64,000 bases of DNA from an uncultured Gammaproteobacteria bacterium (GCA_964425075.1 CAYRKM010000001.1:266484-330483), one strand, 5' to 3'; numbered from the stretch's first letter, positions 3,720-59,309 are shown. Notes: generated by a model from the sequence alone, not told the origin. Program-made: numbers and translations.

Positions 3720-4538
3720 TTACTGGAACGGGAGAGGGACGGACTTGTTAGTCCCTGGAAACCCCCCACAGTGGTTGGCTGCCACGTCCAACCCAACGTC
3801 GCCGTTCTTCAAGCAGAGTACCGCAAGGTACTGCTCGCCTGAATCGAGAGTTGGACTGACGAAGGTGAATCGCCACACACCATCAGAGGTGGTCCCAGAG
3901 AACAGACTTCCCGTCACCTCCTGGGCGTCGAGACCTACGTAGATCTCGGCACCGGCACTTACCATCGCCGTCGGCGAGGAAGTTATCCGAACATCCAGGG
4001 TAACAGTGTTACCCTGGCAGGGCCTCACCGAGCTGAGGCTGACGCTGTTGTCCCCGACGACACGAGGCAAAGTACTCACGGGAGAACTGACGTCATACGT
4101 TTCAGCGGGTCCCGCCACACATGGCGTCGGGGTCGCCGTGGCTGTTGCCGTCGCGGTCGCTGTGACTGTCGCCGTAGCCGTCGCGGTCGCTGTGGCCGTA
4201 GCAGTAGCTGTCGCCGTAGCCGTGGCGGTTGCCGTGGCAGTAGCCGTAGCGGTCGGGGTGGATGTAGCTGTCACGGTGACAGTTGGCGCGCTCTCGCACG
4301 CCTTAACCCACGCCAACCAGCCTCTGTAGAACGGCAACGCCTGCTTGTACCGAGGGTTTGACTCGGCAAAGCGTATCATGCCCTCCACGAATGACTTCTG
4401 TTGTCGGAGAACGTAGGAGGACGGACATCCTCCCTTTGCCTCCGCTTGCGGCGGGTTTGACACCCGCCAGACTGTGGCAAGGCTTGCCACGAGCACCACC
4501 ACCAGGACAAGTCCTGGCACAAAGGCCTTTTTCATCAA
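3720..4538 (-). CDS. Secreted hypothetical protein with long (Thr-Ala)n repeat linker, encoded in a high-GC island
   Basis: 272-aa ORF with signal-peptide-like N-terminus (MMKKAFVPGLVLVVVLVASLA). GGAGG SD 8 nt upstream. ~25x TA dipeptide repeat encoded by a GCN-GTN tandem repeat. Local GC about 60-65% versus about 35% in the flanks. Confidence 0.6.
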   Translation of the reverse strand: MMKKAFVPGLVLVVVLVASLATVWRVSNPPQAEAKGGCPSSYVLRQQKSFVEGMIRFAESNPRYKQALPFYRGWLAWVKACESAPTVTVTATSTPTATATATATATATATATATATATATATATVTATATATATATPTPCVAGPAETYDVSSPVSTLPRVVGDNSVSLSSVRPCQGNTVTLDVRITSSPTAMVSAGAEIYVGLDAQEVTGSLFSGTTSDGVWRFTFVSPTLDSGEQYLAVLCLKNGDVGLDVAANHCGGFPGTNKSVPLPFQ

Positions 4539-4678: not shown

Positions 4679-5542
4679 TTACTTTGCTTTAGGGAAGCGG
4701 AGTGAATAAATAAGCTGAGCTACCTGACCAATTGTTTCTTTTCCTTTTCCTTCATCTTTTAGATTATGAGCCATAACCACAAGAATAAAGGGGTCCTCAC
4801 TATTGTCAACTATTGCCCCATCATGAACCAAAGTTACGGCATCCCCAATTTTGTGATATACGGTTACATCTTTTGATAATAATCTTGGAATTCTGTCTTC
4901 AAATTCCGTGTCTTTCATAAAATCCATCATTTCTTGGCTTAAAGCAGGAGAGGTTATTTTGTGAGAATATAATAATTCCAAAAATCTTCCTACATCACGC
5001 GCTGAGGTTTCGTTTTCTACCATATTAGTAGCACTCATCCCAAGTTGGCGGGCATATTCTTGAATATTGTCCTCACCAAGTCTTATGGTTAATACATGAG
5101 CGGCCGTATTGTCAGACTGTTTGAATGCAAGTTGGGCTAAATATTTTAGAGTGTAGGGTTCTCCAGCTTTTTTATAACGCAGACTTCCTGTTCCATAATC
5201 TTGAATATCTTCTTCTTGAATTACTATTTTATCCTCTAAATTTATTTCCTTTTTTGAGGCTAAATTGTATAAATATCCAACAATTACGAGCTTATTAAGG
5301 GAAGCTGCTGTAAGAACAGTATTCTCCTGTATCCCAAACCCCTCCCCACTATTTATATCTTTATAATAAATACTGAACTGCCCCTCTTTTTCCTTCAAAA
5401 ATTTGGTTAATTCTTCTCGAATCTCTTCTGTATCCTTTGCCTTTTCTGCTTTTGAAAAATTAAGAGTTGGAATAAAGGTAAGATGCCGACCCAAAAGGAT
5501 TAGGAAAAAAGAATAAAAAAGAAAAATTGCTACATTTCTCAT
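4679..5542 (-). CDS. Serine hydrolase of the class A beta-lactamase / PBP-like family
   Basis: SxxK (TAASLNK), SDN (KQSDNTAAH) and K[TI]G (HKIGD) motifs in canonical order; N-terminal hydrophobic segment. Confidence 0.6.
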   Translation of the reverse strand: MRNVAIFLFYSFFLILLGRHLTFIPTLNFSKAEKAKDTEEIREELTKFLKEKEGQFSIYYKDINSGEGFGIQENTVLTAASLNKLVIVGYLYNLASKKEINLEDKIVIQEEDIQDYGTGSLRYKKAGEPYTLKYLAQLAFKQSDNTAAHVLTIRLGEDNIQEYARQLGMSATNMVENETSARDVGRFLELLYSHKITSPALSQEMMDFMKDTEFEDRIPRLLSKDVTVYHKIGDAVTLVHDGAIVDNSEDPFILVVMAHNLKDEGKGKETIGQVAQLIYSLRFPKAK

Positions 5543-7068: not shown

Positions 7069-7142
7069 ACAAATAGTATTGCCACGTTAGCGTTTTAATT
7101 GCAAATGGGTTATTTTTACCCTATGTTACAATACACTTGGCT

Positions 7143-7181
7143 ATGGACGATGTAGAAAAGAAAGCGACTTTTCGTTTTTAA
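7143..7181 (+). repeat. Upstream copy 1 of dnaG start (ATGGACGATGTAGAAAAG) forming 12-codon mini-ORF MDDVEKKATFRF*
   Basis: Exact 18-nt identity with copy 2 and 17/18 with the true dnaG start at 7227. Spacing 41 and 43 bp. Confidence 0.7.
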
Positions 7182-7183
7182 GT

Positions 7184-7222
7184 ATGGACGATGTAGAAAA
7201 GAACTCTACTTTTCTACAATAG
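7184..7222 (+). repeat. Upstream copy 2 of dnaG start forming mini-ORF MDDVEKNSTFLQ*
   Basis: See copy 1. The downstream tail is similar but diverged (ACTTTTC shared). Confidence 0.7.
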
Positions 7223-7226
7223 AAGT

Positions 7227-8990
7227 ATGGATGATGTAGAAAAGGTAAAAGCAAAACTCAATTTAGTTGATGTAATTGAAGGCTATATCCCTCTGAAGCG
7301 AGCTGGAAGAAATTTTAAAACCCCTTGTCCCTTTCACAATGAAAAAAGCCCTTCATTTGTGGTTTCTCCTGAAAGGCAAATTTGGCATTGTTTTGGATGC
7401 GCAAAAGGTGGAGACATGTTTACATTTGTTGAAGAATACGAAAGAGTGGACTTCTCTGAAGCTCTTAAAATTTTAGCGGATAAAGCTGGAATAACGCTTA
7501 CCAAAACTGTTTTTAAAACCAAGAGAGATGAGAAAAAGAATAGGATTTATGAAATAAATCACCTTACAGCTCAATTCTATCACTACCTTTTAACAGAGCA
7601 TAAATCCGGAAAAGAAGCACTTTCTTATGTAATTGAAAAGAGAGGATTAACAAAAGCTCTCCTTTCAACTTATATGCTGGGATTTGCTCCTCTTCAAAGA
7701 GACGCGCTATCTCAATATCTTATAAAGAAAAAGCACTATTCAAAAGAAGAACTTGTTGAGGCAGGTGTTTCTTTTTTTAGAAACGGGAGGGTGTTTGATT
7801 TCTTCATAAACCGGCTTATTTTCCCAATTCTTGATAGTAGGGGCAATATCATCGCCTTTTCAGGACGCGCCTTAACTGACAATGTAATGCCTAAATACAT
7901 AAACACAAAAGAAACCCCGGTATACGTAAAGGGAGACACTGTATTTGGAATATATCAGGCAAAAGAAGAGATCAAAAAGGAGGGTAAAGTAATTGTTGTT
8001 GAAGGTGAATTTGATGTTATTACTAGCTTTAAGGAAGGAATTGTAAATGTTGTTGCAGTCAAAGGAACAGCTTTAACTGAAAATCAAATTCGACTTTTGA
8101 AGCGCTTTTCCCAAAAAATAGTTTTTTGTTTTGACACAGACCCTGCAGGAACTGAAGCGCAGCGTAGATCAATTGCATTAATTGCAAAAGAGGGAATTTC
8201 TGCCTCAGTTGTACTTCCTCCACAGGGAAAAGATCCTGACGAATTATTAAGAGACAATCCTGGCCTTTTTAAAAAAGCTTTAAAAGAGGAGATAAATATC
8301 TATGATTTTATCCTGGAGTCATCCATTCAAAAAATTGATCCAAAGTCAGTAGACGGTAAAAAAGCTATCCTCTTAAGAACTTTGCCGTATTTATATGATA
8401 TTGAGAATGAAATTGTAAAAGAGCATTACCTAAAGAAACTTGCCTCACTTTTAGATTCATCCCTTGAGTCGGTTGTAAAGGAAGCTGAGAAACTCAAATC
8501 CCCTCCACCGGCACCCCAGCCAGAAAAACTAAAGATTGAGAAAAAACCACGACAATATATGATTGAAGAATATTTGTTAACACTTATTGTACAAAGCGCT
8601 AATCCAAAAGAAGCAACTATTCTTACAGCAGGAATTATTAATGGCGTAAAACTACAAACTCCTATTTTTAACCAACTATTTGAATTTTTGCGTGAATATT
8701 TCAAAACCCAGGACAAGCTAGTTTTGGAAGAGGTCAGTCAAGTGCTTCCAAAAGATCTTACGAGTGTTTTTGACCTATGTTTACTTACCCCAATTCCACA
8801 ATTTGCAACAGAAGAATTATTTACTCACCAACTTGGAAAAACGGCAAATGAGGTAAAACACATATCTATTAAGGCAAAATTGTCAGCAATCTCAAATTCC
8901 ATAAAAACTGCTGAAAAAGAAGGAAATGAGGAAAGCATAGAAGAGCTTCAAAAGGAATTTGATATGCTTGCCTCTCACTATAAGAGCTAA
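7227..8990 (+). CDS. dnaG: DNA primase
   Basis: CHC2 zinc finger CPFHNEKSPSFVVSPERQIWHCFGCAKGGD, TOPRIM region (VVEGEFDV), followed by rpoD as in the classical operon. Confidence 0.9.
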   Translation: MDDVEKVKAKLNLVDVIEGYIPLKRAGRNFKTPCPFHNEKSPSFVVSPERQIWHCFGCAKGGDMFTFVEEYERVDFSEALKILADKAGITLTKTVFKTKRDEKKNRIYEINHLTAQFYHYLLTEHKSGKEALSYVIEKRGLTKALLSTYMLGFAPLQRDALSQYLIKKKHYSKEELVEAGVSFFRNGRVFDFFINRLIFPILDSRGNIIAFSGRALTDNVMPKYINTKETPVYVKGDTVFGIYQAKEEIKKEGKVIVVEGEFDVITSFKEGIVNVVAVKGTALTENQIRLLKRFSQKIVFCFDTDPAGTEAQRRSIALIAKEGISASVVLPPQGKDPDELLRDNPGLFKKALKEEINIYDFILESSIQKIDPKSVDGKKAILLRTLPYLYDIENEIVKEHYLKKLASLLDSSLESVVKEAEKLKSPPPAPQPEKLKIEKKPRQYMIEEYLLTLIVQSANPKEATILTAGIINGVKLQTPIFNQLFEFLREYFKTQDKLVLEEVSQVLPKDLTSVFDLCLLTPIPQFATEELFTHQLGKTANEVKHISIKAKLSAISNSIKTAEKEGNEESIEELQKEFDMLASHYKS

Positions 8991-10323: not shown

Positions 10324-11064
10324 ATGGGTTATTTCGGGAAAATTGAACTTAAAAATGAAGCTATCGCACTCCACCAAAAAGGCCTTTCCTATAACGAAAT
10401 TCTGAAAACAATTCCTGTTTCCAAAGACACATTAAGTCGGTGGTGCAGAGAAATTGAACTAACAAATGATCAAAAAGCAAGATTAATGACAAATAAAGAG
10501 AACGGCCAGAGAAAGGGCTCGCTTGTAGCAGCTGGTAATAAAAGGAGACAAAGAATAGAAAAAATTAAGAACATAAATATCTTGGCTAGAAAGGACATAG
10601 GTAAAATTTCAAAGAGAGATAATTTCATTTTTGGCCTAGCTCTTTATGCCGGAGAGGGAGGCAAAACCGATGGAAAAGGTACCTTCACCAACTCGAATCC
10701 CTTTTTTATTAAATTTATGTGTAAATGGTTAATGGAATATTGTGATTTAAATGCTAATAATCTAAAGGGGGCACTATGGATTCATGAAGAAAACGATGAA
10801 AAAGAAGCAAAAATATTTTGGTCAAATTTAACTGAAATTCCTATTATAAATTTCCATAAATCATACGTCGTTAAAAACAAAAATGGAGTTTATTATCGGA
10901 AAAATGTTCATCCATTTGGAGTTTTTTCTATACGATTTTACAATAGTGATTTACAAAGGAAAATAATGGGCTGGATTTCAGCTTTCTTAGATGATAAAAT
11001 AACTTCCACTCAAGAAATTGAGTCGATCCGCGATAGCTCAATGGTAGAGCAGGAAACTGTATAA
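10324..11064 (+). CDS. Hypothetical protein with N-terminal HTH and a single degenerate LAGLIDADG-like motif (possible free-standing homing-endonuclease relative)
   Basis: HTH-like LSYNEILKTIPVSKDTLSRWCRE. Motif FIFGLALYAGEGG resembles LAGLIDADG with a terminal acidic residue. Family assignment by eye only. Confidence 0.3.
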   Translation: MGYFGKIELKNEAIALHQKGLSYNEILKTIPVSKDTLSRWCREIELTNDQKARLMTNKENGQRKGSLVAAGNKRRQRIEKIKNINILARKDIGKISKRDNFIFGLALYAGEGGKTDGKGTFTNSNPFFIKFMCKWLMEYCDLNANNLKGALWIHEENDEKEAKIFWSNLTEIPIINFHKSYVVKNKNGVYYRKNVHPFGVFSIRFYNSDLQRKIMGWISAFLDDKITSTQEIESIRDSSMVEQETV

Positions 11065-11204
11065 CAATGCAGCCTCCGAGGGAAACATCGGAGTGAATAA
11101 CTGGGCTAATTCGGGGAAACCCTGAGACAATTGAAGGGCAATCCCGAGCTAAATTCCGCCAAATGGCGAGATAAATGTGTAGAGACTATATACCCAGGAC
11201 CTAA

Positions 11205-11305
11205 TTCGCCAAGATGGTGAAATGGTCATAAGATAGTCCAAGCCTTTTAGTAATAAAAGGGTCCTTGTAATTTCAAGGTTCTAGGTTCGAATCCTAGTCG
11301 CGGAG
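11205..11305 (+). tRNA. tRNA-like element with canonical T-arm and 3' acceptor strand. Full cloverleaf not resolved (possible intron-containing, aberrant or remnant tRNA)
   Basis: CTAGG-TTCGAAT-CCTAG T-arm at 11281-11297, followed by 7-nt acceptor strand TCGCGGA plus discriminator G. Upstream TTCGCCA pairs 6/7. A D-arm-like ATGG-TGAAATGG-TCAT with a GG pair is present. Total length about 101 nt is too long for a standard tRNA and the anticodon arm is non-canonical. Confidence 0.35.
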
Positions 11306-11345: not shown

Positions 11346-12092
11346 ATGAAAAAGCTGATTCCCGTTATAGTAATTTTGCTGATTATTCTTGTAGCAGGCT
11401 TTCTTTTCGTAAGTAACTCCTTTTCACCCCTAACTCCTGAGTCGAAACAAGTGAATAGAGACATAGTTAATGCCTCTTTTTCAAATCCTACTAAAAGTGC
11501 TCATTATGAAAGCAATACCCCCGAACACGGCTCAACCCTAGCGGGTGTACCAATAAATGTAGTTATAAATTTTAATTTTGACCTGGCCGCACCATCTGAA
11601 ATCAAAATTGAAAAAGACGGAGAAGAATATGGAAGTGGCAATACAGAAATTGATGAGAATAAATTGTCTATGAGAAGAGGGATGAGAAGTGATTCCCCTA
11701 ATGGAATTTATACTGTGAATTACAAGGCGTGCTGGCCAGACGGCAGTTGCCATGACGGAAGTTTTCAGTTTGCAATAGACAGAACACGAGAATCTTCATA
11801 CGAAGATCTGACTGGACAAAAGGAAATTACAATCGAAATGAGTGAAATACAGTTTAAATCTATGAATTTGAAAATCAGCAAAGGTACTAAAGTAACTTGG
11901 ACCAATAATGATGATGTTGAACATTATGTTAATACGGATTCTCACCCAGCACACACATACTTCCCTGTACAAAACTCTAAAGCACTAAAGACTGGGGACA
12001 CTTATTCTGCTATATTCACCGATGTGGGAATTTACCCCTATCACTGCTCGGCTCATGCGGACTCCATGATTGGCTCAATACTAGTACAGTAA
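11346..12092 (+). CDS. Membrane-anchored copper-binding protein: CopC-like domain fused to a cupredoxin (type 1 Cu) domain
   Basis: N-terminal TM. Middle region has CopC-like beta pattern. C-terminal ...YHCSAHADSMIG (Cys-x2-His-x3-Met) with upstream His typical of the cupredoxin ligand set. Confidence 0.5.
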   Translation: MKKLIPVIVILLIILVAGFLFVSNSFSPLTPESKQVNRDIVNASFSNPTKSAHYESNTPEHGSTLAGVPINVVINFNFDLAAPSEIKIEKDGEEYGSGNTEIDENKLSMRRGMRSDSPNGIYTVNYKACWPDGSCHDGSFQFAIDRTRESSYEDLTGQKEITIEMSEIQFKSMNLKISKGTKVTWTNNDDVEHYVNTDSHPAHTYFPVQNSKALKTGDTYSAIFTDVGIYPYHCSAHADSMIGSILVQ

Positions 12093-42435: not shown

Positions 42436-42735
42436 CTATAAACTCGGATTGGAAATTTGTTCAACTCCAGTAATTTGTCCAATTACTCTTACAACAAAGA
42501 AAGAGAGGAATATAACGATAAGCCCAATGATAGCGTAGGTTAATGTTTTTTTGGCGCTGTCAATTTCGTTTTGATCCCCTTTTGACGAGATAAATTTAAT
42601 TCCAGAAAAAATAATTAAAATGAGGGCTACAATTCCCGAGAATACGAGTGCTGCGTTAATGATGTTGTTGAGAACTACTGGAATGCAGGCAAGTGTTGCA
42701 ACGCCATTCTTGTCAAGACAGTTACCCCACTGCAT
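42436..42735 (-). CDS. VirB2/TrbC-like pilin paralog 1
   Basis: Signal-like N-terminus with Cys pair, then FISSKGDQNEIDSAKKTLTYAIIGLIVIFLSFF, the conserved (S/T)GGD-x6-A(R/K)...I.G.I..F block shared with the three genes upstream. Confidence 0.5.
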   Translation of the reverse strand: MQWGNCLDKNGVATLACIPVVLNNIINAALVFSGIVALILIIFSGIKFISSKGDQNEIDSAKKTLTYAIIGLIVIFLSFFVVRVIGQITGVEQISNPSL

Positions 42736-42748
42736 ATATTAAATTGAA

Positions 42749-43159
42749 TTAGGCTCCAGGGAATTTGGGAAGAGTTAGGTCAAACAAGTTTAGTCCAAAT
42801 AGACCAAGGATGAGGTTAAGAATAAAGAAGGCAAGGAAGACGATAATAAGCCCAATTATAGCTGCAATGATTTGGTTGCGAGCTGTTTCAACGTTAGCTT
42901 TGTCTCCTCCTGATGTAATCCATTTAATGCCTCCCCAGATAAGGTAGACAAGGGCAACAAGAATCGCAATTATAAAAGCGATAGTGACAATAAATCCAAT
43001 AACAGCACCAAGATCTCGGGTCTTACAAAGGACACTAAGAATTTGAGATGAGTTGTTGCAGGGATTAAGGCTTTCTCCGGGGGTTTGCGCAAAAGATTGA
43101 GCTGCATTCATTAAGAACAAAGGAGTAGAAATAGAAAGAGAGCTTAATAATTTCTTCAT
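42749..43159 (-). CDS. VirB2/TrbC-like pilin paralog 2
   Basis: ITSGGDKANVETARNQIIAAIIGLIIVFLAFF block; N-terminal signal peptide. Confidence 0.5.
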   Translation of the reverse strand: MKKLLSSLSISTPLFLMNAAQSFAQTPGESLNPCNNSSQILSVLCKTRDLGAVIGFIVTIAFIIAILVALVYLIWGGIKWITSGGDKANVETARNQIIAAIIGLIIVFLAFFILNLILGLFGLNLFDLTLPKFPGA

Positions 43160-43210
43160 GTGTTACTAATTGTTATCAATTTTAATAGTGTTTGTCAATA
43201 CCCGTGTGCT

Positions 43211-43555
43211 TTATAAAGAAATGTTTAACAGGTCAATGCCTAAGACTGAGCTAAACAATCCAATTACAAAGAATGAAAGAAAAGCAATGATAAGGCCAAG
43301 AACAGAGAAGATTATGGTTTTTCTAGCACTTTCTACTTTTGTTTTATCCCCTCCTGAAGTAACCCACATAAATCCTCCATACACTATAAAGCCTAAGGCA
43401 ATAAAAACCACTGCTACAAGCAAAAGCATAATAATCCACTCAATAAGTTGTCCTCCGCTGGTTGATAATCCTCCTGTTGGAACACCTTCTGGTGCTTGGA
43501 TTTCTATTGAGCCATTATTTCCGGGAACTGTGAGTTGAGATAATAGTTTTGTCAT
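43211..43555 (-). CDS. VirB2/TrbC-like pilin paralog 3
   Basis: VTSGGDKTKVESARKTIIFSVLGLIIAFLSFF block. Confidence 0.5.
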   Translation of the reverse strand: MTKLLSQLTVPGNNGSIEIQAPEGVPTGGLSTSGGQLIEWIIMLLLVAVVFIALGFIVYGGFMWVTSGGDKTKVESARKTIIFSVLGLIIAFLSFFVIGLFSSVLGIDLLNISL

Positions 43556-45030
43556 TTAGTATTTGTTTGATTGCTCTTTTGTCCGGGTAGCGGATTGTCG
43601 TTAAATCCAGGGATCTTTAGGACGTCTCCTGCTATAACTGATAGTAGCACAAGTGAGAAAATAATAAAAAGCAGTCCAACAATTGCTGAGGTAATTCTTT
43701 CTCTTTGTGCCTGAATTACTTCTTTGTCTCCCCGAGAGAGCAGTAGCCTATATCCTGCATAGAGGATAAGAAGCATTGCCCCAATTGCTGCAAAGCTTAA
43801 TACTATCTGAAAAAGCTTTGTTATAAAGCCGACAGGGTTTAGGGGAATTTTTCCAATCGCAGTGTCAAGCTCATTGCATTTGAGTACACCGGGGTTTGGC
43901 TTACCTTCTTCGCAGGGGATTATGCTTCCTTTTGCCGCTCCTATTTCATCAAGTAAATTCTGTAACTTCTTTGTGTCGCTTCCACCAGGGTCAATTATTT
44001 CTTTACATTCAGGAGTAGCTTTTTTGTCAAAAACGGAACATTCATATTTGAGAAAAGTGTACCCACCACTACAATCGTCTCCAACTGGTTTGTCTTCATT
44101 TACTTGCTCGTTAACTTTTATAACATATCTTCCTGCAATAACGCCTTTCCCATCATCCTCACTATCTTTATATGGAAATTCAACAACGTATTGGTCGGAG
44201 GGCGATGTGAGTCGGAAGTTCTTGTTTTTACTATCGTCTTGGGGCAAGCATCTTTCCTGCATGTATCCGCCTGTTCCCTGCATGACAATTTGAAAGTTAT
44301 TTGCCTTTTGCTTTCCATCTTTAGAAAGACGGTCCTGGTGTAGTTCTACCCTGAATTTTTCAGGAGACTTATTATTGAGTGGGGTGATTTTAACTATGGG
44401 TTCATGATGATTTACAAAAAAGCCTGCTTGACTACGAACAACCCAATTTTCTCCTTGCCTTTCATAAGCAGTTATGTAATAATTTTTCCCTGCCCAAAAC
44501 CAAACCTTGTCTTCAGGGGTGCACTCTTGTTTAAGGTTACTTTCTCCTGCACCACAGACCGTAATAGAGCCGTCAGCATCAAGCTTTGTTAGTTTGCTTC
44601 CAACCACATTATCAGCGGGTAGGTCAATAAACTTTTGAGCTAAGTATCCACCAATTGGGTTGAATCCTCCACCCACTAAAGTTCCAACAGCAAATAGTCC
44701 AACATTTTCAATAATCGAATCTTTTAGGCAATAGTCCCCTCTTAAGCAGACTTGAACCTTGCTTGCATCAACTCCAGGGAAAACAATCTTGACCTTTTTG
44801 ACTGCGTCATCAATACTCTCCAAGCGGTCTGGGTCTTTATAGTCGGGAGGGGAGATAATAGTTGTTGTAAAGCTACTGTCTTCGGAATATTCAGTTGAGA
44901 CATCTCCGAGGTTTTTATCTAGGGGATCGGGTCCAAGTTGTATTTCCTGAGCGAATATAGAGCCAGAATAAACTGAAAGGAATAGTGTGACTATGACAAC
45001 AAAACCAAAAAATCCAAATAATTTTTTCAT
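43552..45030 (-). CDS. Large secreted protein with about 400-aa Cys-rich extracellular domain fused to a C-terminal pilin-like module (candidate pilus tip or adhesin subunit)
   Basis: Signal peptide. Many Cys. C-terminal LSRGDKEVIQAQRERITSAIVGLLFIIFSLV pilin block identical in pattern to the three small paralogs. Confidence 0.45.
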   Translation of the reverse strand: MKKLFGFFGFVVIVTLFLSVYSGSIFAQEIQLGPDPLDKNLGDVSTEYSEDSSFTTTIISPPDYKDPDRLESIDDAVKKVKIVFPGVDASKVQVCLRGDYCLKDSIIENVGLFAVGTLVGGGFNPIGGYLAQKFIDLPADNVVGSKLTKLDADGSITVCGAGESNLKQECTPEDKVWFWAGKNYYITAYERQGENWVVRSQAGFFVNHHEPIVKITPLNNKSPEKFRVELHQDRLSKDGKQKANNFQIVMQGTGGYMQERCLPQDDSKNKNFRLTSPSDQYVVEFPYKDSEDDGKGVIAGRYVIKVNEQVNEDKPVGDDCSGGYTFLKYECSVFDKKATPECKEIIDPGGSDTKKLQNLLDEIGAAKGSIIPCEEGKPNPGVLKCNELDTAIGKIPLNPVGFITKLFQIVLSFAAIGAMLLILYAGYRLLLSRGDKEVIQAQRERITSAIVGLLFIIFSLVLLSVIAGDVLKIPGFNDNPLPGQKSNQTNTK

Positions 45031-45106
45031 ACTATCTTAATCATAACTTAAATTGAGGAAATTGTTAAATTGTCACTTTTTTAGTAATTAGAACTTAGTC
45101 ACTAAG

Positions 45107-45173
45107 CTTACTTTTCGTCAGGAAAGCAAGGGGAGATATTAATCACTCAACTTACTTTTCGTCAGGAAAGCAA
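45107..45173. repeat. Two 23-bp perfect direct repeats CTTACTTTTCGTCAGGAAAGCAA (45107-45129, 45151-45173; about 32 bp with flanking similarity) in the promoter region of the pilin operon
   Basis: Seen directly. 44-bp spacing. Lies between the pilin-fusion gene start (45030) and the winged-helix regulator gene. Confidence 0.7.
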
Positions 45174-45182
45174 AATGAGCGA

Positions 45183-46571
45183 TTAGTCGCTTAATTTATA
45201 TCCTTTTCCTTTTATCGTGTGAATAAAGTGAGGATTGGTAGGGTCTTGTTCTATTTTCTTTCTTAGTCTATAAAAAATCTGATCAAGAGCTTGATCTGTG
45301 ACTCCTTCTTGGGTTTTGTTATCACTCCAAATAGCATTAATTATCTCGTCTTTTGAACAAAGTTTTTCTTTATTTGCAATTAAAAACTTAAGCAGTTTGA
45401 ATTCTGAGGGTGAAAGCTTGTCCGATATTGAGGCATCTCCAACTCGTATATCATTTTTCTCACTGTCATAAGTAAGTTTATCTTTACTTGAAACCGATGT
45501 TGTCTTGATAAATTCTGAAAGTAGGGGAATGGATGGGGCATTATTTTTTATAAGTTCACTATTTGTTAAAAAGGAAGAAGCATTTGTTATCGGTGAATTT
45601 TTTAGTTCAATTTGCTCTGAAGGGAGAAGGGCATTCCAAATTTCAGATAATGCCCCCTGAATGGTTGGTCTTTTCAATAAAAAGTCACGAAGGCTTGAGG
45701 GTGTTTCGTCTTCGCTAATAAGCGCCTCATAAGAGAGCTTGGTGAGTTTTGCATGTCCTCCGGTAAGATTAAGAATTTCCTTTTTTGTATTTTCAGGAAT
45801 TGTTTTATGAGCCGCCTTTTCAATATATGAAAGCCTAAAGTCCATCCCAATAGGGTCAAAAAGAGAGACAAATACGTTGTTCCCCGCGACTATATCATGA
45901 AAGTCGGAAAGCAATTCTGGCTCACATACATCCTCAAGTGGTCGAGTAAGCGCAAATACGCTCCCAAATCTATATTTGGCATGATTTCGAAGGACTCTGA
46001 GGTTAGTAAAAAATTGAGAGTCAATAGTTGGAAGTAAAGAGTCGAATCTATCAAATAGCAAATGGACTGTAAGTTTCTTTTCTATTGATAGGTAATCAAG
46101 GGCTTGTTTTAATGATTGAAATAAAACTAACTCATCCTGCATGCTCACCCCATTTTTCAGAAATTCGTTTACTTTTTTTGATTCATCAATCAGGCGTCTT
46201 TCTCCAAGAGAGAAGGCAAGAGACAGTAGGATAAATTTAGTTATGTCAAAAAGTGGGCGATTTTTAACCTCGGTTGAGTCAATATATACAAAATGCATTA
46301 TTTTTTCGTATTCTCCAAAATGTTTTGCTCTCACATTTAGGTTGTAGGCTAGTAGACGCAGGATATTGCTTTTTCCAACCCCTGGAAGTCCAACGACCTG
46401 AGAAGAAAGACCCTTTCCTATAAAAGGAGCAAGAGCACTAAGCTCCTTTTCGCGCGTTCCTTCAGGATACAAGCTTTCAAAATATTTAAGGGGTTCAAAT
46501 TGCATGGTATCTCCAATATACCACAGTAAAAGGGAGCTGTGAGGTGGTTGTAAGCTAAATATCAAGTTCAA
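45183..46571 (-). CDS. Putative transcriptional regulator: N-terminal P-loop NTPase domain plus C-terminal OmpR/PhoB-type winged-helix DNA-binding domain
   Basis: Walker A GLPGVGKSNILRLL. C-terminal ...KLLKFLIANKEKLCSKDEIINAIWSDNK...ALDQIFYRLRKKIE...IHTIKGKGYKL typical trans_reg_C. Confidence 0.6.
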   Translation of the reverse strand: MNLIFSLQPPHSSLLLWYIGDTMQFEPLKYFESLYPEGTREKELSALAPFIGKGLSSQVVGLPGVGKSNILRLLAYNLNVRAKHFGEYEKIMHFVYIDSTEVKNRPLFDITKFILLSLAFSLGERRLIDESKKVNEFLKNGVSMQDELVLFQSLKQALDYLSIEKKLTVHLLFDRFDSLLPTIDSQFFTNLRVLRNHAKYRFGSVFALTRPLEDVCEPELLSDFHDIVAGNNVFVSLFDPIGMDFRLSYIEKAAHKTIPENTKKEILNLTGGHAKLTKLSYEALISEDETPSSLRDFLLKRPTIQGALSEIWNALLPSEQIELKNSPITNASSFLTNSELIKNNAPSIPLLSEFIKTTSVSSKDKLTYDSEKNDIRVGDASISDKLSPSEFKLLKFLIANKEKLCSKDEIINAIWSDNKTQEGVTDQALDQIFYRLRKKIEQDPTNPHFIHTIKGKGYKLSD

Positions 46572-46598
46572 ATAAAGGCATCAAATTACAATAACGGC

Positions 46599-49500
46599 AT
46601 GGTAAATGAATTGACAGGCAACATTCAAATGCCCTATCCTGGAGGTAGGACCATAGCAGGTTCTCAAAACCAACCACACGAATCCTACAGGCTAAATGAG
46701 CCCAAAGGACGAGCTGTAGAAAAGAGAAATATGGATGATATTGTCGAGAAAGATAAAAAAACCCCAACTGTAAACCCAGAAGAAGAGAAAAAGAAAACGG
46801 ATGAGATCCTCGATAAGGAAAGAAGAGAGAGGCTAAAAGCAAAATCTAGCAAATTCACAAGAGAAGAGGAGGAGGAAATCCGCAGAGCACTTGAGGATGA
46901 GAGAGAGAAGGGAAGAAATAATTTAACCGAGAAACAGAAAAGCCTTTTGGAGATGGCAAGGGCAATAAGTACTGGTGGAGGAGCAAGTGATGACTATTTT
47001 GAACATTTTCCAGCTGAAAAATTTAAGAACCCTTCTCTTAAAGCTCTTGCAGATAATTTAAAATCTCTCGGCCAAAATAGCCAGATAACCGAGGAAAAAC
47101 TACAAGAAGCCGTAAAGCTTGTGCACGATATGGTTAGAGCGAGCGTTATTCAGGATGATGAAGGGGCGGAGTTCATAGAGGAGGTCTCAAGAGCAAGAAC
47201 TGCTCAGGCTACTGGTCAACCTTACGAGCCCTCTATGGAAACCGGAGGTGCTGGTGGGCAAGAGCCTCCGAGAACAGGTCGTACCGCAGCAGGCGGTCAG
47301 GAAAATCGAGGAAGAAATAGTCAGGAGGGAGATGGGCATTGGTCAACAATAAACGTAGATAAATTTCAAGAAGACACTCCAATACGAAGAATTGCAGAAC
47401 AGATAAGACAAGCAGGTTTTAACCGCGCAAGCGTAAACCAAGAAACTATTAGGTCGTGGGCAAATGAAGCATCAGCCGCAGTTCAGAGGGGAGAAGATAC
47501 AGAGGAGCAGGAAAGAATACTTAGGGATGAAATACAGGGAATTATGCAAGAACTGCAAAATAAAGAGAGTCTTGTAAATACGCCCAAATCAATTCAAGCG
47601 CTATGTAGATGGATTATTGAAAAGGAGGGGGCGCAGTGGGGACCGGGAGGGGTAAATGAGCTTATTGATGGGGAAAACAACTTTAAGCAAGAGAATTTTC
47701 TCAAGTGGGTACGTGAGAGAATGCTTTTCTTCCATGGTTTTAGTCCGGATGATGAGCTTAATTTATTGGGTCAAATTGGTGTAGAAACAGAATTTAGGAC
47801 AATTGGTCTTGGAACGATGATCTCAAATAAAAATCAATACTTTAGAGACGAGAATAGAATAGACCCTGCTACTGGACGACCATATATTTATGATGAATTT
47901 ATTGAAGAGGTAGTAAATGAAGTATTTTTGTTTAACCAATCAAGAAATTATGACGCAAATTACCGCTTTACAATGTGGAGCGACAAAGATTTACCTGGGC
48001 TTTTAAGTAAAATTCACCAGCGCAGTGTTTTTACCACTTCTGATCAAATGAAAAAAATCTTCAAGCTTTCTGCTGACTATACGGAAGATGAAGCAGCAAG
48101 AGATACAAAGGTTGGAGATTCGATTAGAATGGCTTATGAGGTCTACTATAGTATGTCAGACCTTGAAGAATTAAAAGAGGTGTTGGGTGAAGATTCGCTA
48201 TTCTTTACCAGAAAAGGATTTGAGGATGCATACCGCCTTTCTCAAAACAAATCTGCTGACGAACCTATCCCCCAAAATTATAGTGATTTATTTGATTCAC
48301 TTTTCGATGCCTCCGGCAAGCCAATTCCGCATGACAGAAAAGATGAGAATGGAAATAACATAGAGGGCTTTATGAGTTTTATTAATTTATTTAATGAAAC
48401 GGGAAAATTGCAATCAACAGTTTCTCTCGTTAGAGAGGCTGTGCGCCTTGCAATATCTGAGAGATACGGGCTTGAGAATGGGCTTAATGATTCGGGGGAG
48501 GCACGCAGTGTTAGGAGGAAAAACCTTGAATATGCAGAATTGTGGGCATATTCTATGGCTCGTTGGACAGGTGCTGGAGCACGAAATGATACTGGTGCTA
48601 TTGGATATGATGCTCAAACCAAATTCCAGCGCTTTCAGGAATACAGGCTTCGTCAGGCAAGAGCTGTGAGAGGTGGGGCTTTTGGTAATGAGTATGACCT
48701 ACCTGTTATAAAAGATTTGACACTCGATTTCTTTAATGGAATTTTTGTTGAAAAAGAGGTGGGTGAAGCTCGTGATTTTACGCCTTTTGAAATCTTTAAA
48801 CAACTTGATGGTATTGATAAGCAAATTGCTGCTGTCCGTCGAAATAGAGGTGATAATGATTTAAATGAAGCAGAAAAGGGTCAAATTCTCCAGCTTCTTC
48901 AAACAAAAGAAGAGGCATATAATCGTTTTAAATTCAAGCAATTTACCCAACTTGATTATGCCTCAAATCACATAAATCGTGCATATCAGGTATTCGAGTG
49001 GCTTACTGGGGCAAATGAAATACAAATTGATCAAATCGTTAAGCACGAGCCTTTTAGAGGACTTGTGTTTGACAGGGCAAAGTTTGAAGAGCAAGTAAAG
49101 GAAAACTTTATAAAACCCATTCGATATGCATTCAATACATATTCAAACATAGATTACTCTAAAAAAATGAGAGTTCAGGATAGAAAGGCATCTCGAGAGC
49201 AAAAAAGACCAGTATATAAAGAGGTCACGATGGCAGAGGCTATGTTTGGTCCTGCAGTTTTGGAGGATTTTTACAAAAAAGATGAGAATGGGAAAAGGGT
49301 AATTGATGAAGAAAAATTGAGAAAAGATAGAGGGCTTTTATATAAAAGAGTAATTCGTTCGATCCTTGCAGCACACATAAAGTCTCACAGAGAGCGTTTT
49401 AGTGGATATTCAAAAATGGATTGGGCGCAGATGGAAAAATTTTATGAGGCGTTAGAAAGCATCAGAGAGATTGAGATAGCAGATGATGAAGAGGGACTAA

Positions 49501-49673
49501 CTGCCAAGGAGGGGTTCTTTACGGAGGAGGATATCAAATGGATGAGAAAAGCAAGTGGAACAGGAAAACTTAGAATGCTTCTAACAGATGTTACCCCAAG
49601 TGTTGGTGTAGGTATAGCGGGAGGATTCTTTAAGGGCCTAAAGGACTTTACAGAGGAGATATTTGACGATTAG
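46599..49673 (+). CDS. Large (about 1000 aa) soluble hypothetical protein, highly charged. True start probably an internal Met near 46733
   Basis: Long uninterrupted ORF with strong coding character; no Walker or other motif recognised. Confidence 0.4.
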   Translation: MVNELTGNIQMPYPGGRTIAGSQNQPHESYRLNEPKGRAVEKRNMDDIVEKDKKTPTVNPEEEKKKTDEILDKERRERLKAKSSKFTREEEEEIRRALEDEREKGRNNLTEKQKSLLEMARAISTGGGASDDYFEHFPAEKFKNPSLKALADNLKSLGQNSQITEEKLQEAVKLVHDMVRASVIQDDEGAEFIEEVSRARTAQATGQPYEPSMETGGAGGQEPPRTGRTAAGGQENRGRNSQEGDGHWSTINVDKFQEDTPIRRIAEQIRQAGFNRASVNQETIRSWANEASAAVQRGEDTEEQERILRDEIQGIMQELQNKESLVNTPKSIQALCRWIIEKEGAQWGPGGVNELIDGENNFKQENFLKWVRERMLFFHGFSPDDELNLLGQIGVETEFRTIGLGTMISNKNQYFRDENRIDPATGRPYIYDEFIEEVVNEVFLFNQSRNYDANYRFTMWSDKDLPGLLSKIHQRSVFTTSDQMKKIFKLSADYTEDEAARDTKVGDSIRMAYEVYYSMSDLEELKEVLGEDSLFFTRKGFEDAYRLSQNKSADEPIPQNYSDLFDSLFDASGKPIPHDRKDENGNNIEGFMSFINLFNETGKLQSTVSLVREAVRLAISERYGLENGLNDSGEARSVRRKNLEYAELWAYSMARWTGAGARNDTGAIGYDAQTKFQRFQEYRLRQARAVRGGAFGNEYDLPVIKDLTLDFFNGIFVEKEVGEARDFTPFEIFKQLDGIDKQIAAVRRNRGDNDLNEAEKGQILQLLQTKEEAYNRFKFKQFTQLDYASNHINRAYQVFEWLTGANEIQIDQIVKHEPFRGLVFDRAKFEEQVKENFIKPIRYAFNTYSNIDYSKKMRVQDRKASREQKRPVYKEVTMAEAMFGPAVLEDFYKKDENGKRVIDEEKLRKDRGLLYKRVIRSILAAHIKSHRERFSGYSKMDWAQMEKFYEALESIREIEIADDEEGLTAKEGFFTEEDIKWMRKASGTGKLRMLLTDVTPSVGVGIAGGFFKGLKDFTEEIFDD

Positions 49674-49696
49674 AGTTAGAAACTTGCTAAGAATTT

Positions 49697-51727
49697 CTAA
49701 CTACTATTATTTCCATCTCTCAAATCCTCAACTGCATCTTGAGCTCCAAGAGCTGCATCTCTTGCCTCATTAGCTGCTACTTCTGTTCGTTGCGCTGCTC
49801 TTCCTGCTTCTGGATTTGCATTGTCTGCGTCATCCGATGGCCCCGTTGCAACCTCTGAACCAGTTGCACCTCCTCCTGAGGGTGCTGGTTCTCTTCCTGC
49901 GGGTGCTGCGCCTGCAGGGTTATTTCCACTGTCTTTTCCCTTATTTCTTCTCAACGGATTTTTTATCCAGGGAATGTGTTCATATCCACCTTTTCCATCG
50001 TTCTTTTCAGGATCCCAACGTTTTGACTTAAAGCTGCCCCCAAATACAGCAGCTGTAAGTCTGCCGCCCCTTTCCTCAGCAATTCTTGTTAACAACTTTG
50101 GATTACCCATTGCGTCCTCACCCCAAACCTTGTTCCAACCACCTTTGATAGGTGAAGTTATGAGTTTTTGACCTGAGCCCAATGCTCTTCCGGCAGCTCC
50201 TGCAATCTTAAGGTCAGGAGCTTTTAGAGCTTGTTTTGTTATATTTACAGCCTCAGGCATGATAAGTATCATTCCAAGTCCAAGTATTGATGCAATAGCC
50301 CCAACTCCATTGTCTCCAGGATCTCCTACAAGAGGGGGGATAAATGTGGCCTGGCCTGGAACCACGTTGTCCTGAACTGCTTTTCCAATTAGGAATAAAA
50401 CAATAACAACAGGAAAGGCTGCAAGATTTGCTGTAACGCTTCTAAGCCAGGGACCAACGCCTCCACCGGCTCCAGGAATAACTCCTTTCAATATCCAAAA
50501 TGGGGCAAAAATAACATCAAGAATGATAAACACATAGGCTTTAATAAGCATGAACCAAACCCGAAGAAGAGCAGAAAGAATTGCGATTGCTATTATAAGG
50601 TAGGCAATAATTAGAGCAATAAGGCCGAAGACTTTGGTCCCAAAAGCATAACCAGCCGCCCCCATTATTGGTCCGAGAATCCAATTTGTGCTAAAACCAG
50701 CTATTTCAGGCGCCATATTTGCAGCAGTCATTCCAGCGATAATACCAGTTACGATTCTTGCTAGCTGTTCTCCAATTCCACCTTCAAAGAGTGATCCTAA
50801 AACGTTTGCTATTCCTTTTGCGGCCGGAGTCGCAATATTATTTATCCCGCCCAATCCCCCGACGGCATTAACTGGATTGGTGTCAATATTTGTAATAGTT
50901 GTAAGACCCTGACTATGGAAGAGTTGGATAACAAGATAAATTGAAACATACATCATGTCAATCAAAAATCCGACGATAGCATAGGAAAACGTGATAAGAA
51001 TGAGGGCAATAACAATTTTTGGAATTTGGTTTTGGATACTCATAACAGTTCTAGCGTCAATATTTATACGAAACATTATTCCCAAACCAAGCAGGATAAA
51101 AACTAAAACAAACAATAAATAAACGAGATTTCTAAAAGTTTCCCAAATTTTAAGAACCGGAGTAAGGCCTTTAAATCCTATTCCTTGCCCAAATCCTGTT
51201 TGTGAAGCTTTTGCAGCATCAAGACATGCTCCCATCGATTCAGGAGGAGTGCCTAGGCATTGCTCGGTTGGGGTTGCGGCATATGAATTACGTGTTATCC
51301 CAAAATTTGATGCGACGTATTTTCCATATTCAACTGAGGAAACAGGTATATTATAGGTAGACCCAATAAGATTTCCGGAAAGAGTTAATAGTCCTCCCGT
51401 GCCATTTTCTACATATCCTACCTTTCTTGTTGTTGGGTCAATTCCAAGACATTTACCATTGGTTGAAAGAGGATCGTATCCTGTTAAAAAGCAAGATGCT
51501 GTTGCTAGGATGTTTATAAATGTAGTTTGAGTATAGGTATTAATATTTTGAGGAACATTTGGATTTGTGTTTAGAGGCAATGACTGAGGGGAGGCAATGT
51601 TTGAAGTTTGAGCTGAAACATTTCCGGTAAAAATAAAAACACCTAAAAAGAAAAAGACAGATAGAAGTGCGATCTTTGCTTTTTGAGAGAATACTTTAGT
51701 TTTCCATTTAGAGCAGTTCATTTTCAT
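49697..51727 (-). CDS. VirB6/TrbL-like polytopic membrane protein with Gly/Ala/Pro-rich C-terminal tail
   Basis: Signal peptide, about 250-aa periplasmic region, then more than 8 TM helices, then GGSFKSKRWD...GAAPAGREPAPSGGGATG tail, an architecture typical of TrbL/VirB6. Assignment by architecture only. Confidence 0.45.
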   Translation of the reverse strand: MKMNCSKWKTKVFSQKAKIALLSVFFFLGVFIFTGNVSAQTSNIASPQSLPLNTNPNVPQNINTYTQTTFINILATASCFLTGYDPLSTNGKCLGIDPTTRKVGYVENGTGGLLTLSGNLIGSTYNIPVSSVEYGKYVASNFGITRNSYAATPTEQCLGTPPESMGACLDAAKASQTGFGQGIGFKGLTPVLKIWETFRNLVYLLFVLVFILLGLGIMFRINIDARTVMSIQNQIPKIVIALILITFSYAIVGFLIDMMYVSIYLVIQLFHSQGLTTITNIDTNPVNAVGGLGGINNIATPAAKGIANVLGSLFEGGIGEQLARIVTGIIAGMTAANMAPEIAGFSTNWILGPIMGAAGYAFGTKVFGLIALIIAYLIIAIAILSALLRVWFMLIKAYVFIILDVIFAPFWILKGVIPGAGGGVGPWLRSVTANLAAFPVVIVLFLIGKAVQDNVVPGQATFIPPLVGDPGDNGVGAIASILGLGMILIMPEAVNITKQALKAPDLKIAGAAGRALGSGQKLITSPIKGGWNKVWGEDAMGNPKLLTRIAEERGGRLTAAVFGGSFKSKRWDPEKNDGKGGYEHIPWIKNPLRRNKGKDSGNNPAGAAPAGREPAPSGGGATGSEVATGPSDDADNANPEAGRAAQRTEVAANEARDAALGAQDAVEDLRDGNNSS

Positions 51728-51796
51728 AACAAGACAACCCTTTGAGAAAGAAGGGTAGGCATTTTCAGTATGAAGAACGGGGTATTAAAAATCAAG

Positions 51797-51835
51797 CCTT
51801 CGCTGAGCTCAGTCCGGGTCCTTCGCTGAGCTCAG
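51797..51835. repeat. Two copies of CCTTCGCTGAGCTCAG (each containing the 10-bp palindrome CTGAGCTCAG) with 23-bp period
   Basis: Seen directly in the divergent region between the VirB6-like gene and 51923 gene. GC-rich relative to surroundings. Confidence 0.6.
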
Positions 51836-51884
51836 GGCAGGACTTTTATTCAATTTAGTCTAATGTCACTTGAGGCAAAAAATA

Positions 51885-51913
51885 TTGACAAGCCCTTATT
51901 TAGGGGTTAGTAT
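51885..51913 (+). promoter_or_regulatory. Sigma-70-like promoter (TTGACA-17 bp-TAGTAT) driving a near-leaderless transcript of the 51923 gene
   Basis: -35 at 51885-51890, -10 at 51908-51913, ATG at 51923. Confidence 0.4.
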
Positions 51914-51922
51914 GACATCAGA

Positions 51923-52519
51923 ATGATAAGAGTATATAAAGTTGTTTTGGGGGTTCTTCTTTTTGTTGTTTTCATAACAAATACTGCTTTTGCAAAAAGC
52001 GCAGAGCCGGTAGAGAGCACTACCCCAGAACGCATAGACGCAACAGTGAGCGCCAAACCCGGAAAGATTGAGTACGAGTTGCCATATCCTGGGATGCTGC
52101 CTGACAACCCTTTGTATTTTTTAAAAACAATAAGGGACGCGATAGTAAAAGCATTAATAAACGACCCATTTAAAAGAGCAGAATTCAATCTTTTAACTAC
52201 ACAAAAAAGAATGTATGCGGCAAAGTTTTTATCGGAAAAGGGGAAAGATAAGTTAACATACGAAACTGTTGCAAAGAGCAATAATTATTATCATGAGGCA
52301 ATAGATTCCATTCAAGTTGTGCAAAAGAATAATCCCAAGAGCCCTGTTGTGAAGCCGTTTCTTGATCAGGCATTGAAGGTAAACATAAAGCATAAAGAAA
52401 TTTTGGGGGTAATAAAAAAAGAAATAGACAAGAAATACCAGAAAGATGTTTTAAATGAAGAAAAAAGACTTGAAAGGATGAAAACTACAATTGACCAAAT
52501 GCTAAAACTTTACCTCTAG
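51923..52519 (+). CDS. Secreted hypothetical protein (DUF5667-like N-terminal motif common in Patescibacteria)
   Basis: Signal peptide then YPGMLPDNPLYFLK motif. Confidence 0.4.
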   Translation: MIRVYKVVLGVLLFVVFITNTAFAKSAEPVESTTPERIDATVSAKPGKIEYELPYPGMLPDNPLYFLKTIRDAIVKALINDPFKRAEFNLLTTQKRMYAAKFLSEKGKDKLTYETVAKSNNYYHEAIDSIQVVQKNNPKSPVVKPFLDQALKVNIKHKEILGVIKKEIDKKYQKDVLNEEKRLERMKTTIDQMLKLYL

Positions 52520-58944: not shown

Positions 58945-58950
58945 AATTTG

Positions 58951-59309
58951 TGGAGATGGGGGGTTTTGAGCCCCCGTCCAAAAATCATCCATAAAAACAT
59001 CTACAAGCGTAGTTCCCTCTAATTCTTGCCATATCTAACCGTTGGAACAAAGAAAATATGACAAAGGCCTAATACGAAACGGGCTGGCCAGCTCCGTTAA
59101 GTTTTTCTAGCAGGTTAATGCCTGTATCTTTGTGCTAGAAGCAAGTTGATACAAACAGGTCTTAGGTATTAAGCAAACGCAAAGTTTGGTTTAAAACCAA
59201 GTCCGCTAAATTGTGATTTAGCATGTATTTTTGAACCTCTTTTACGACTTTGGTTCATTGTCGGCTTGCAGTTTTTAAGGTACAATTCTTGTCGATGCAG
59301 TGCATCCCC
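58951..59309 (-). ncRNA. ssrA: tmRNA (SsrA), standard one-piece form
   Basis: Minus-strand 5' GGGGATGCACTGCATCGACAAG... 3' ...GGACGGGGGCTCAAAACCCCCCATCTCCA. Acceptor stem carries the G3:U70 wobble (AlaRS identity) and discriminator A. T-arm GGGGG/CCCCC. Putative tag ORF GCT AAA TCA ... GCG TTT GCT TAA (AKSQFSGLGFKPNFAFA). Adjacent to smpB. Confidence 0.75.

Follow-up and report, generated by a model that had tools for sequence, protein, structure and literature searches.

Two identical sequence blocks beside the gene of a DNA-binding protein raise the question of whether they are the sites to which that protein binds or whether they arose, and may act, in another way. Such a pair lies between a regulator gene and a pilin operon in the stretch of DNA analysed here, hereafter the window, which spans 64 kb and represents 7.7% of the 835-kb source genome. 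The 23-mer CTTACTTTTCGTCAGGAAAGCAA (+ strand) is present in exactly two copies in the 64-kb window, at positions 45107-45129 and 45151-45173, with a start-to-start distance of 44 nt. A preliminary description of the locus had reported these two perfect 23-bp direct repeats, and they are confirmed at these positions. It had also named further, scattered copies as the mark of a generic repeat family; across the part of the genome that the window covers, no further copy is found with up to three mismatches allowed, and none was seen in 100 shuffles.

The regulator gene, the pilin-fusion gene and the small pilin genes are all located on the - strand. The regulator gene (45183-46505) encodes 440 amino acids (aa) plus the stop codon, most likely starting from the ATG at 46505 and thus with the same 440 aa as its database twin P0001, and the TTG at 46571 is an unlikely start. 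Its product is predicted to carry an AAA+/STAND-like P-loop domain and a C-terminal winged helix of the OmpR/PhoB type (residues ~364-439). The pilin-fusion gene (43552-45030) encodes a 492-aa signal-peptide protein with a C-terminal VirB2-like T4SS_pilin domain that scores just below the cutoff (25.1 bits, cutoff 26.6). Three small VirB2-like pilin genes are found at 43211-43555, 42749-43159 and 42436-42735, together spanning 42436-43555. Two of their products are above the Pfam T4SS_pilin cutoff (42.8 and 42.4 bits), and the product of 43211-43555 is below it (19.8 bits). In addition, the window encodes a VirB4/TraG-type ATPase, PrgI, a lysozyme-like protein and an M23 peptidase besides the VirB2-like pilin array, and the locus is a type IV secretion cluster of Patescibacteria, of the kind described in PMC12102498.

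The regulator and pilin-fusion genes are separated by a spacer of 152 nt, in which the repeats lie downstream of the regulator stop codon (45183-45185) and upstream of the pilin-fusion start (45030). The earlier placement of the repeats upstream of the pilin-fusion gene therefore stands, but it is incomplete, as they also follow the regulator stop codon and belong to an array that reaches into the regulator gene. A sigma-70-type promoter of the pilin-fusion gene is predicted at 45040-45068 on the - strand (TTAACA-17-TATGAT) and aligns with the promoters of related loci. Its -10 box is 9 nt from the ATG, suggesting that the transcript has a very short leader or none. Relative to the predicted transcription start, the 23-nt core copy 2 (45107-45129), which is nearest the pilin promoter, is centred ~85 nt upstream, and the regulator-proximal core copy 1 (45151-45173; - strand reading TTGCTTTCCTGACGAAAAGTAAG) is centred ~129 nt upstream.

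Repeat finding extends the 23-mer pair into two head-to-tail 44-nt units with 82% identity, and the complete array comprises 2.4 units of 44 nt with the 23-mers as unit cores. In the direction of the - strand, the first unit already starts within the regulator's four final codons, and each unit opens with a copy of these four codons and the stop codon. Unit S1 (45154-45197, - strand) consists of the real gene end AAATTAAGCGACTAA, followed by TCGCTCATT and the first 20 nt of core copy 1, and unit S2 (45110-45153, - strand) of a pseudo gene end AAGTTGAGTGATTAA, followed by TATCTCCCC and the first 20 nt of core copy 2. The partial third unit E3 (45095-45109, - strand; AAGCTTAGTGACTAA) follows in register, 44 nt after the gene-end copy E2, with which it shares 12 of 15 positions. 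S1 and S2 are identical at 35 of 44 positions in an ungapped alignment (shuffle p<0.0005), and the head-to-tail order and constant register that characterize a tandem duplication are seen in S1 and S2 as well as in E3. The array is not the artefact of one assembler, as window positions 42529-52078 (9550 nt), array included, recur with 100% identity in an independently made Logan assembly (L089, run SRR14271365).

The differences between the units are not evenly spread. All three gene-end copies read K-L-S-D-stop and differ at synonymous positions only, and the probability that this reading would survive four random changes is 0.0008-0.004. The nine mismatches between S1 and S2 all fall within the first 24 nt and leave the core intact, a clustering outside the core with p ~0.03-0.05 (~0.03 in the phase used in the preliminary description). 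Between the two 23-nt cores, loop and stem are both identical, and the flanks differ at ~40% of positions. Each core is an imperfect dyad that can be drawn as CTTTTC-GTCA-GGAAAG or as an 8-bp stem with an 8-nt loop.

The window contains a second intergenic tandem repeat at 7142-7244 (41 nt x 2.5, 82% matches), which duplicates the first six codons of an ORF at 7227 and thus also involves a gene terminus; terminal duplications hence recur in this genome. A family link between this repeat and the 44-nt array was rejected, with only the 9-mer ACTTTTCGT and arms of the GAAAAG/CTTTTC type common to both.

The regulator family counts more than 1100 matches of ~440 aa from Levybacteria/Microgenomates, and 88 related Levybacteria loci were examined. 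The order of the regulator gene followed by a signal-peptide/pilin gene is kept in most related loci with a readable downstream gene, and in most readable loci this next gene encodes a signal-peptide protein of ~300-650 aa. Among the 53 related loci with a callable promoter, the median stop-to-start distance is 42 nt, and only seven spacers exceed 100 nt. In these 53 loci, the -35 box (TTGCAA or TTGACT) follows the regulator stop codon by a median of 6 nt, and the -10 box (TAYGAT or TATCAT) precedes the start codon by 6 nt in 27, implying leaderless or near-leaderless mRNAs. Comparing the intergenic regions themselves, as had been proposed for this locus, went against the repeats being a shared site: the 23-mer is found in none of the 88 loci, the closest ones (76-79% protein identity) included, and the spacers of the five closest relatives, at ~40-61 nt, contain only a promoter and no repeat. 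Gene end and proximal promoter are both conserved in a multiple alignment, and the window differs by an insertion of ~90-110 nt that separates them.

Spacers that are long in other lineages hold unrelated inserts, as exemplified by locus L029, where an unrelated long palindromic insert occupies the same position (z -5.7). Convergent hairpins as a general pattern were dismissed, as L029 is the only long-spacer relative that folds strongly. The sequence TCGCT..TTTTGC after the stop codon is common to relatives L086 and L087 and therefore represents ancestral spacer and not insert. Beyond these loci, the 20-mer core was absent from the public genome-contig and viral-contig collections searched, and its sole match in metagenomes (L084) is due to chance and lies inside a GC-rich coding region. 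Together with the lack of other copies in the window at up to three mismatches, these results speak against a dispersed repeat family within the 64 kb and the collections covered.

Folding of the array differs between the two strands. On the sense RNA (- strand), the stem-loop SL1 (45140-45185) begins at the UAA stop codon; its stem of 18 bp contains a single U.U mismatch and is capped by an 8-nt loop, and core 1 occupies the apex. These 46 nt have a predicted energy of -19.1 kcal/mol (z -6.0), a stability reached by 0 of 200 shuffles. The antisense fold reaches only -15.2 kcal/mol, as A.C mismatches take the place of two G.U pairs on the complementary strand. The remainder of the array (45094-45130, - strand) folds into SL2, an 8-bp stem-loop containing core 2 (45130-45107), and SL3, a perfect 5-bp hairpin formed by the third gene-end copy (CUUAG-UGA-CUAAG, 45106-45094), which are weak and together reach -7.9 kcal/mol (z -1.7). 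The whole insert has a z of -3.3 on the sense strand compared to -1.3 on the antisense strand. Several unit-specific substitutions create base pairs: the changes in E2 pair with the 10 nt after the stop codon, and three changes specific to E3 give SL3 its perfect 5-bp hairpin. Pair formation thus offers an alternative explanation for the apparently synonymous differences among the gene-end copies.

Neither SL1 nor SL2 appears to be a canonical intrinsic terminator, since no U-tract follows either of them and SL1 is followed by AUAUCUCCCC; a U-rich tail is found only behind an alternative 5-bp stem, AGCGA/UCGCU. Terminator-like sites are not enriched in this genome. A known RNA family was ruled out, as Rfam returned zero matches at E<=1 across 44900-45300, and so was a small RNA transcribed from the plus strand across the spacer, with promoter-like and terminator-like matches at chance level and weaker folding of that strand.

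The domain composition given for the regulator in the preliminary description, a P-loop domain combined with an OmpR/PhoB winged helix, was borne out by its motifs, profile scores and fold matches. The C-terminus matches Pfam PF00486 Trans_reg_C with 71.7 bits (cutoff 26.2) and the PhoB DNA-binding domain with an E of 9e-9, and in the AlphaFold model (pLDDT 88.7) the winged helix resembles the DNA-binding domains of KdpE, PhoB and RstA (TM 0.72-0.76). The N-terminal domain carries a Walker A motif (GLPGVGKS) and a Walker B-like motif (LLFDRFD) and adopts an ORC/Cdc6/PABY2304-like AAA+ fold in the model, with a Foldseek probability of 1.0 to PABY2304, Orc4 and Cdc6. It also matches CED-4, which has an AAA+/STAND fold, and its Pfam AAA_22 score of 18.5 bits is below the cutoff of 27. 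Judged from sequence and model, the regulator is thus a predicted NTPase that combines an AAA+/STAND-like P-loop domain with a winged helix of the PhoB type. Its Walker A motif is canonical, whereas 12 of 28 aligned family members have an exchange at the lysine (K to R) or at the serine (S to N or G). Among 28 members with overall identities down to 51%, 11 of the 15 positions of the predicted recognition helix (residues 405-419) are at least 90% conserved, and this near invariance implies a conserved DNA target.

A candidate for such a target is found beyond the opposite end of the regulator gene. A conserved 29-nt block at 46538-46566 (- strand; CTTGATATTTAGCTTACAACCACCTCACA) contains three T-N-A-Y-A pentamers at 11-nt spacing, has the family form CTTGATATttaccTtACAa.aaccT.ACA and is the sole conserved non-coding element found among the related loci. 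The block is the top position weight matrix (PWM) match in 83 of 88 loci. In the window, the PWM finds one site with 37-38 bits, followed by a next best score of 11.5 bits, and the intergenic region with the 23-mers scores -6.6 to -8.1. The block overlaps the promoter of the regulator itself, and its edge is 33 nt from the ATG of a divergent 1024-aa gene; in related loci the same distance separates it from the ATG of the divergent ~1000-aa gene wherever the N-termini align. It occupies the position expected for the -35 box of this divergent gene, and its orientation relative to the ~1000-aa gene is constant in all 43 loci in which both were located, three with altered gene order included. The more likely place for the operator of the regulator family is therefore this upstream block with its direct repeats at 11-nt spacing, and a putative pairing of the regulator with the block is better founded than its pairing with the 23-mers.

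The array is accordingly not a conserved operator of the regulator family. That the 23-mers might still serve in this lineage as operators or upstream activating sites, through which the adjacent AAA+/winged-helix regulator controls the pilin operon, appears rather improbable. The boxes do adjoin the gene of a genuine DNA-binding regulator, their cores are centred at distances from the predicted sigma-70-type start (~85 and ~129 nt) that would suit such sites, and they are identical at 23 of 23 nt despite diverged flanks. Moreover, the 44-nt spacing equals ~4.2 helical turns, and each core ends in GTAAG, resembling the TGTAAG half-site of the conserved block. Yet the boxes are missing from all 88 related loci even though the recognition helix is nearly invariant, the spacers of most relatives are too short for an upstream site, and the 29-nt block PWM scores the spacer negatively, so that the cis site proposed in the preliminary description is not supported. 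The boxes also lack a direct sub-repeat of 10-11 nt, their internal symmetry being a dyad, and the presence of the gene's 3' end in the repeat unit argues for a duplication and not for the acquisition of a site. An even less probable variant is that the 23-bp dyad boxes form a lineage-specific landing pad on which the regulator would oligomerise in a nucleotide-dependent manner, spanning ~90 bp upstream of the promoter of the VirB2 array. If true, direct pilin control would have been added to an ancestral circuit acting only at the divergent promoter block. Several identities that do not involve the regulator were rejected. Duplicated promoters were considered because TTGCTT at the start of each core resembles a -35 box and lines up with that of L086 and L087, but no -10 hexamer is present at 16-19 nt (TTGAGT, CTTAGT) and the promoter scan is negative there; E2 matches the -10 region of the true promoter only weakly (p 0.03) and with a shifted register. 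A CRISPR mini-array was dismissed on the grounds that there are two repeats only, the apparent spacer is homologous to the flanks and no cas gene is found among the neighbours scanned, and iterons and attC sites on the grounds that neither rep nor integrase genes are found among those neighbours and the spacer is homologous to the flanks.

The other explanations concern how the array came about. A neutral duplication by slippage or unequal crossover, without any function and with the core identity stemming from recent partial gene conversion between units, is considered unlikely, though several observations favour it: the array is lineage-specific and has two copies only, the spacer position accepts unrelated insertions in other lineages, and the terminal tandem duplication at 7142-7244 shows a similar divergence (82% matches). 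Nevertheless, the mismatches are significantly clustered outside the core (p ~0.03-0.05), the stability of the 18-bp hairpin far exceeds that of shuffled sequences (z -6), and the substitutions between units form pairs and all keep K-L-S-D-stop (P 0.0008-0.004), neither of which is expected from free drift. Two insertions of a small palindromic element of the REP or MITE type into a TAA target immediately behind the stop codon would account for the TAA boundaries of each 41-nt unit, for the 10-nt terminal inverted repeats of unit 1 (TAATCGCTCA and TGAGTGATTA) and for a palindromic insert at the same position in L029 (z -5.7), although that insert is unrelated. This origin is nonetheless very unlikely, considering that unit 2 lacks terminal inverted repeats, that no further copy exists in the 64 kb at three mismatches or in the public collections searched, and that TCGCT..TTTTGC after the stop codon, being common to L086 and L087, is ancestral spacer. 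In addition, the first 15 nt of each unit are an in-register copy of the gene end, as a tandem duplication gives. Highly improbable, finally, is that the units are recombination scars, that is, relic 3' ends of different regulator alleles stacked by exchange of pilin cassettes, with the 23-mer as the crossover core. The synonymous differences between the three end copies would fit such alleles, and the proteins of the downstream pilin arrays of Patescibacteria are highly variable (PMC12102498). Against this stand units that carry no cargo, the lack of any relative with the 23-mer in single copy, and neighbouring products among which a scan against Pfam found no recombinase or integrase, several of these neighbours having no family match; the pair-forming changes in the hairpins explain the substitutions equally well.

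The preferred explanation, to which a probability of about 0.5 is assigned, is that the array is a private tandem duplication that has become a stem-loop array and, if functional, acts as a 3'-end or insulator element on the transcript. The duplicated segment would have reached from the regulator's four final codons into the 5' portion of the former spacer between regulator and pilin gene, and the resulting array would have pushed the pilin-fusion promoter ~90-110 nt away from the regulator stop codon. Transcribed in the sense direction, it may fold into a series of stem-loops, the first of which would be the stable 18-bp hairpin at the stop codon. Any function would then probably be exerted on RNA, and it could be speculated that the array serves as a 3'-end or terminator-like insulator, uncoupling read-through from the regulator gene from the pilin operon's own promoter. 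Alternatively, it may protect the 3' end of the regulator mRNA. A protein that recognises the sequence would explain the identity of the whole core, loop included, no less well than an RNA helix would.

With the array read as a private stem-loop duplication, its most likely effect is a local change in the coupling of two neighbouring transcription units. The repeat is thus an ordinary type of feature in a new place, and the regulator family and the conserved block are the more useful lead. To our knowledge, hardly anything is known of how these uncultured, host-dependent bacteria regulate their genes, and the regulator and the 29-nt block provide a concrete candidate protein-DNA pair for in-vitro testing. 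In most Levybacteria loci examined, the AAA+/PhoB-type winged-helix family adjoins a VirB2-like pilin array, and the family is not described in PMC12102498. The text of that paper contains zero occurrences of "winged", "promoter" and "Trans_reg_C", and it thus describes neither a winged-helix regulator nor a promoter architecture for pilin arrays.

Compared with known systems, the locus resembles the VirB2-like pilin arrays of Patescibacteria type IV secretion loci (PMC12102498) in having the same ATPase, PrgI, lysozyme-like and M23 genes together with a pilin array, whereas the winged-helix regulator and the promoter architecture appear here and not in that paper. The regulator shares its domain order, an AAA+ base, a helical lid and a C-terminal DNA-binding winged helix, with ORC/Cdc6-type and STAND-type AAA+ proteins (2qen PABY2304, Orc4, Cdc6, CED-4). 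It differs from them in that its winged helix is of the OmpR/PhoB (Trans_reg_C) type, that Walker A K or S is replaced in 12 of 28 family members, and that there is no evidence of an origin function. Like short intergenic tandem duplications (VNTR-like) at gene termini, the array is head-to-tail, in register, 2.4 units long and includes the last codons of the gene, but it keeps a 23-nt sub-block identical and its other substitutions are non-random. With 3'-UTR stem-loops, intrinsic terminators and REP-type extragenic palindromes it has in common a stable hairpin directly after the stop codon, a preference for the sense strand and the location of SL1 between two genes of the same orientation, with a separate promoter for the second; unlike these, the array has no U-tract and no dispersed family in the 64 kb and the collections searched, and a long stem is formed in one of its two units only. 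OmpR/PhoB-family operators are called to mind by the true PhoB-type winged helix alongside and by repeats that are direct and upstream of a promoter. Such operators consist of at least two direct half-sites of 6-10 bp with a period of 10-11 bp and are conserved along with their regulator, whereas the 23-mers have a period of 44 nt, are each internally a dyad, are located at about -85 and -129 and not directly at the -35 box, and do not accompany the regulator in related loci. In the pho box, 7-bp direct repeats containing TGTCA recur with an 11-bp period and replace the -35 box. The 29-nt block upstream of the regulator displays a similar arrangement, with TGTGA, TGTAA and TATCA at 11-nt spacing abutting a weak -35 box.

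The -10 boxes of the pilin-fusion gene and of the divergent 1024-aa gene lie within 45028-45068 and 46587-46601 of the window, respectively, and in both cases only 6-9 nt separate the box from the start codon. A similarly short gap is found in most relatives, being 6 nt in 27 of 53, and such short gaps imply that leaderless or near-leaderless mRNAs would be the rule at the regulator/pilin locus. In the pilin-fusion promoter, the -35 region is overlapped by short direct repeats, (T)TAACAAT / GACAATTT, at 45058-45078 in the window and at 5369-5400 and 5969-6003 in the related Levybacteria loci L004 and L087. These repeats occur in the window as well as in the 65-68% identical relatives with longer spacers, and are a second candidate, better conserved, for an element of proximal control.

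Insertions are tolerated at the site adjoining the regulator. In several relatives (L028, L046, L053, L066, L074, L076 and others), the regulator has a small neighbouring gene (about 120-140 aa), either downstream or upstream, which is flanked by AAATTT-type low-complexity repeats. The N-terminus of its product, like ..NKYDLEERT.., is presumably similar to that of the four-helix-bundle / 23S rRNA intervening-sequence protein family. In the relative L029 (49% identity), the regulator-pilin spacer is taken up by an unrelated palindromic insert of about 150 nt (positions 5320-5470; fold z -5.7).

Elsewhere in the window, a second intergenic tandem repeat (7142-7244; 41 nt × 2.5, 82% matches) duplicates the beginning of ORF 7227..8990, namely its start codon and initial six codons (M-D-D-V-E-K), and the duplication has created two 12-codon mini-ORFs upstream of this ORF. 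Each copy carries a GAAAAG-N7-CUUUUC hairpin; the arms of these hairpins are conserved and their loops have diverged. A GC-rich 24-nt tandem repeat with a 6-nt sub-period, located at 4131-4268 inside ORF 3720..4538 (-), is probably a repetitive coding region. A full-length Rfam group I intron match (11050-11260, plus strand, 63 bits) lies between or overlaps ORFs 10324-11064 and 11346-12092. A tmRNA gene (58948-59309, minus strand) has the tag peptide AKSQFSGLGFKPNFAFA.

Within the regulator family, 12 of 28 aligned members show either replacement of the Walker A lysine by arginine or of the next serine by asparagine or glycine (residues 40-48 of the alignment), and nucleotide hydrolysis may thus not be universal in the family. 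The likelier candidate operator of the winged-helix regulator is a conserved 29-nt block at 46538-46566 on the minus strand, with the consensus CTTGATAT..cTtACA..cT.ACA and three pentamers spaced exactly 11 nt apart. Among the related loci (numbered within L001-L089), the block was the top position-weight-matrix hit in 83 of 88. Its edge and the ATG with which the divergent ~1000-aa gene starts are 33 nt apart, and the block is antisense to that gene in every case, including loci with a different gene order. The 29-nt block looks like an activator site akin to the pho box.
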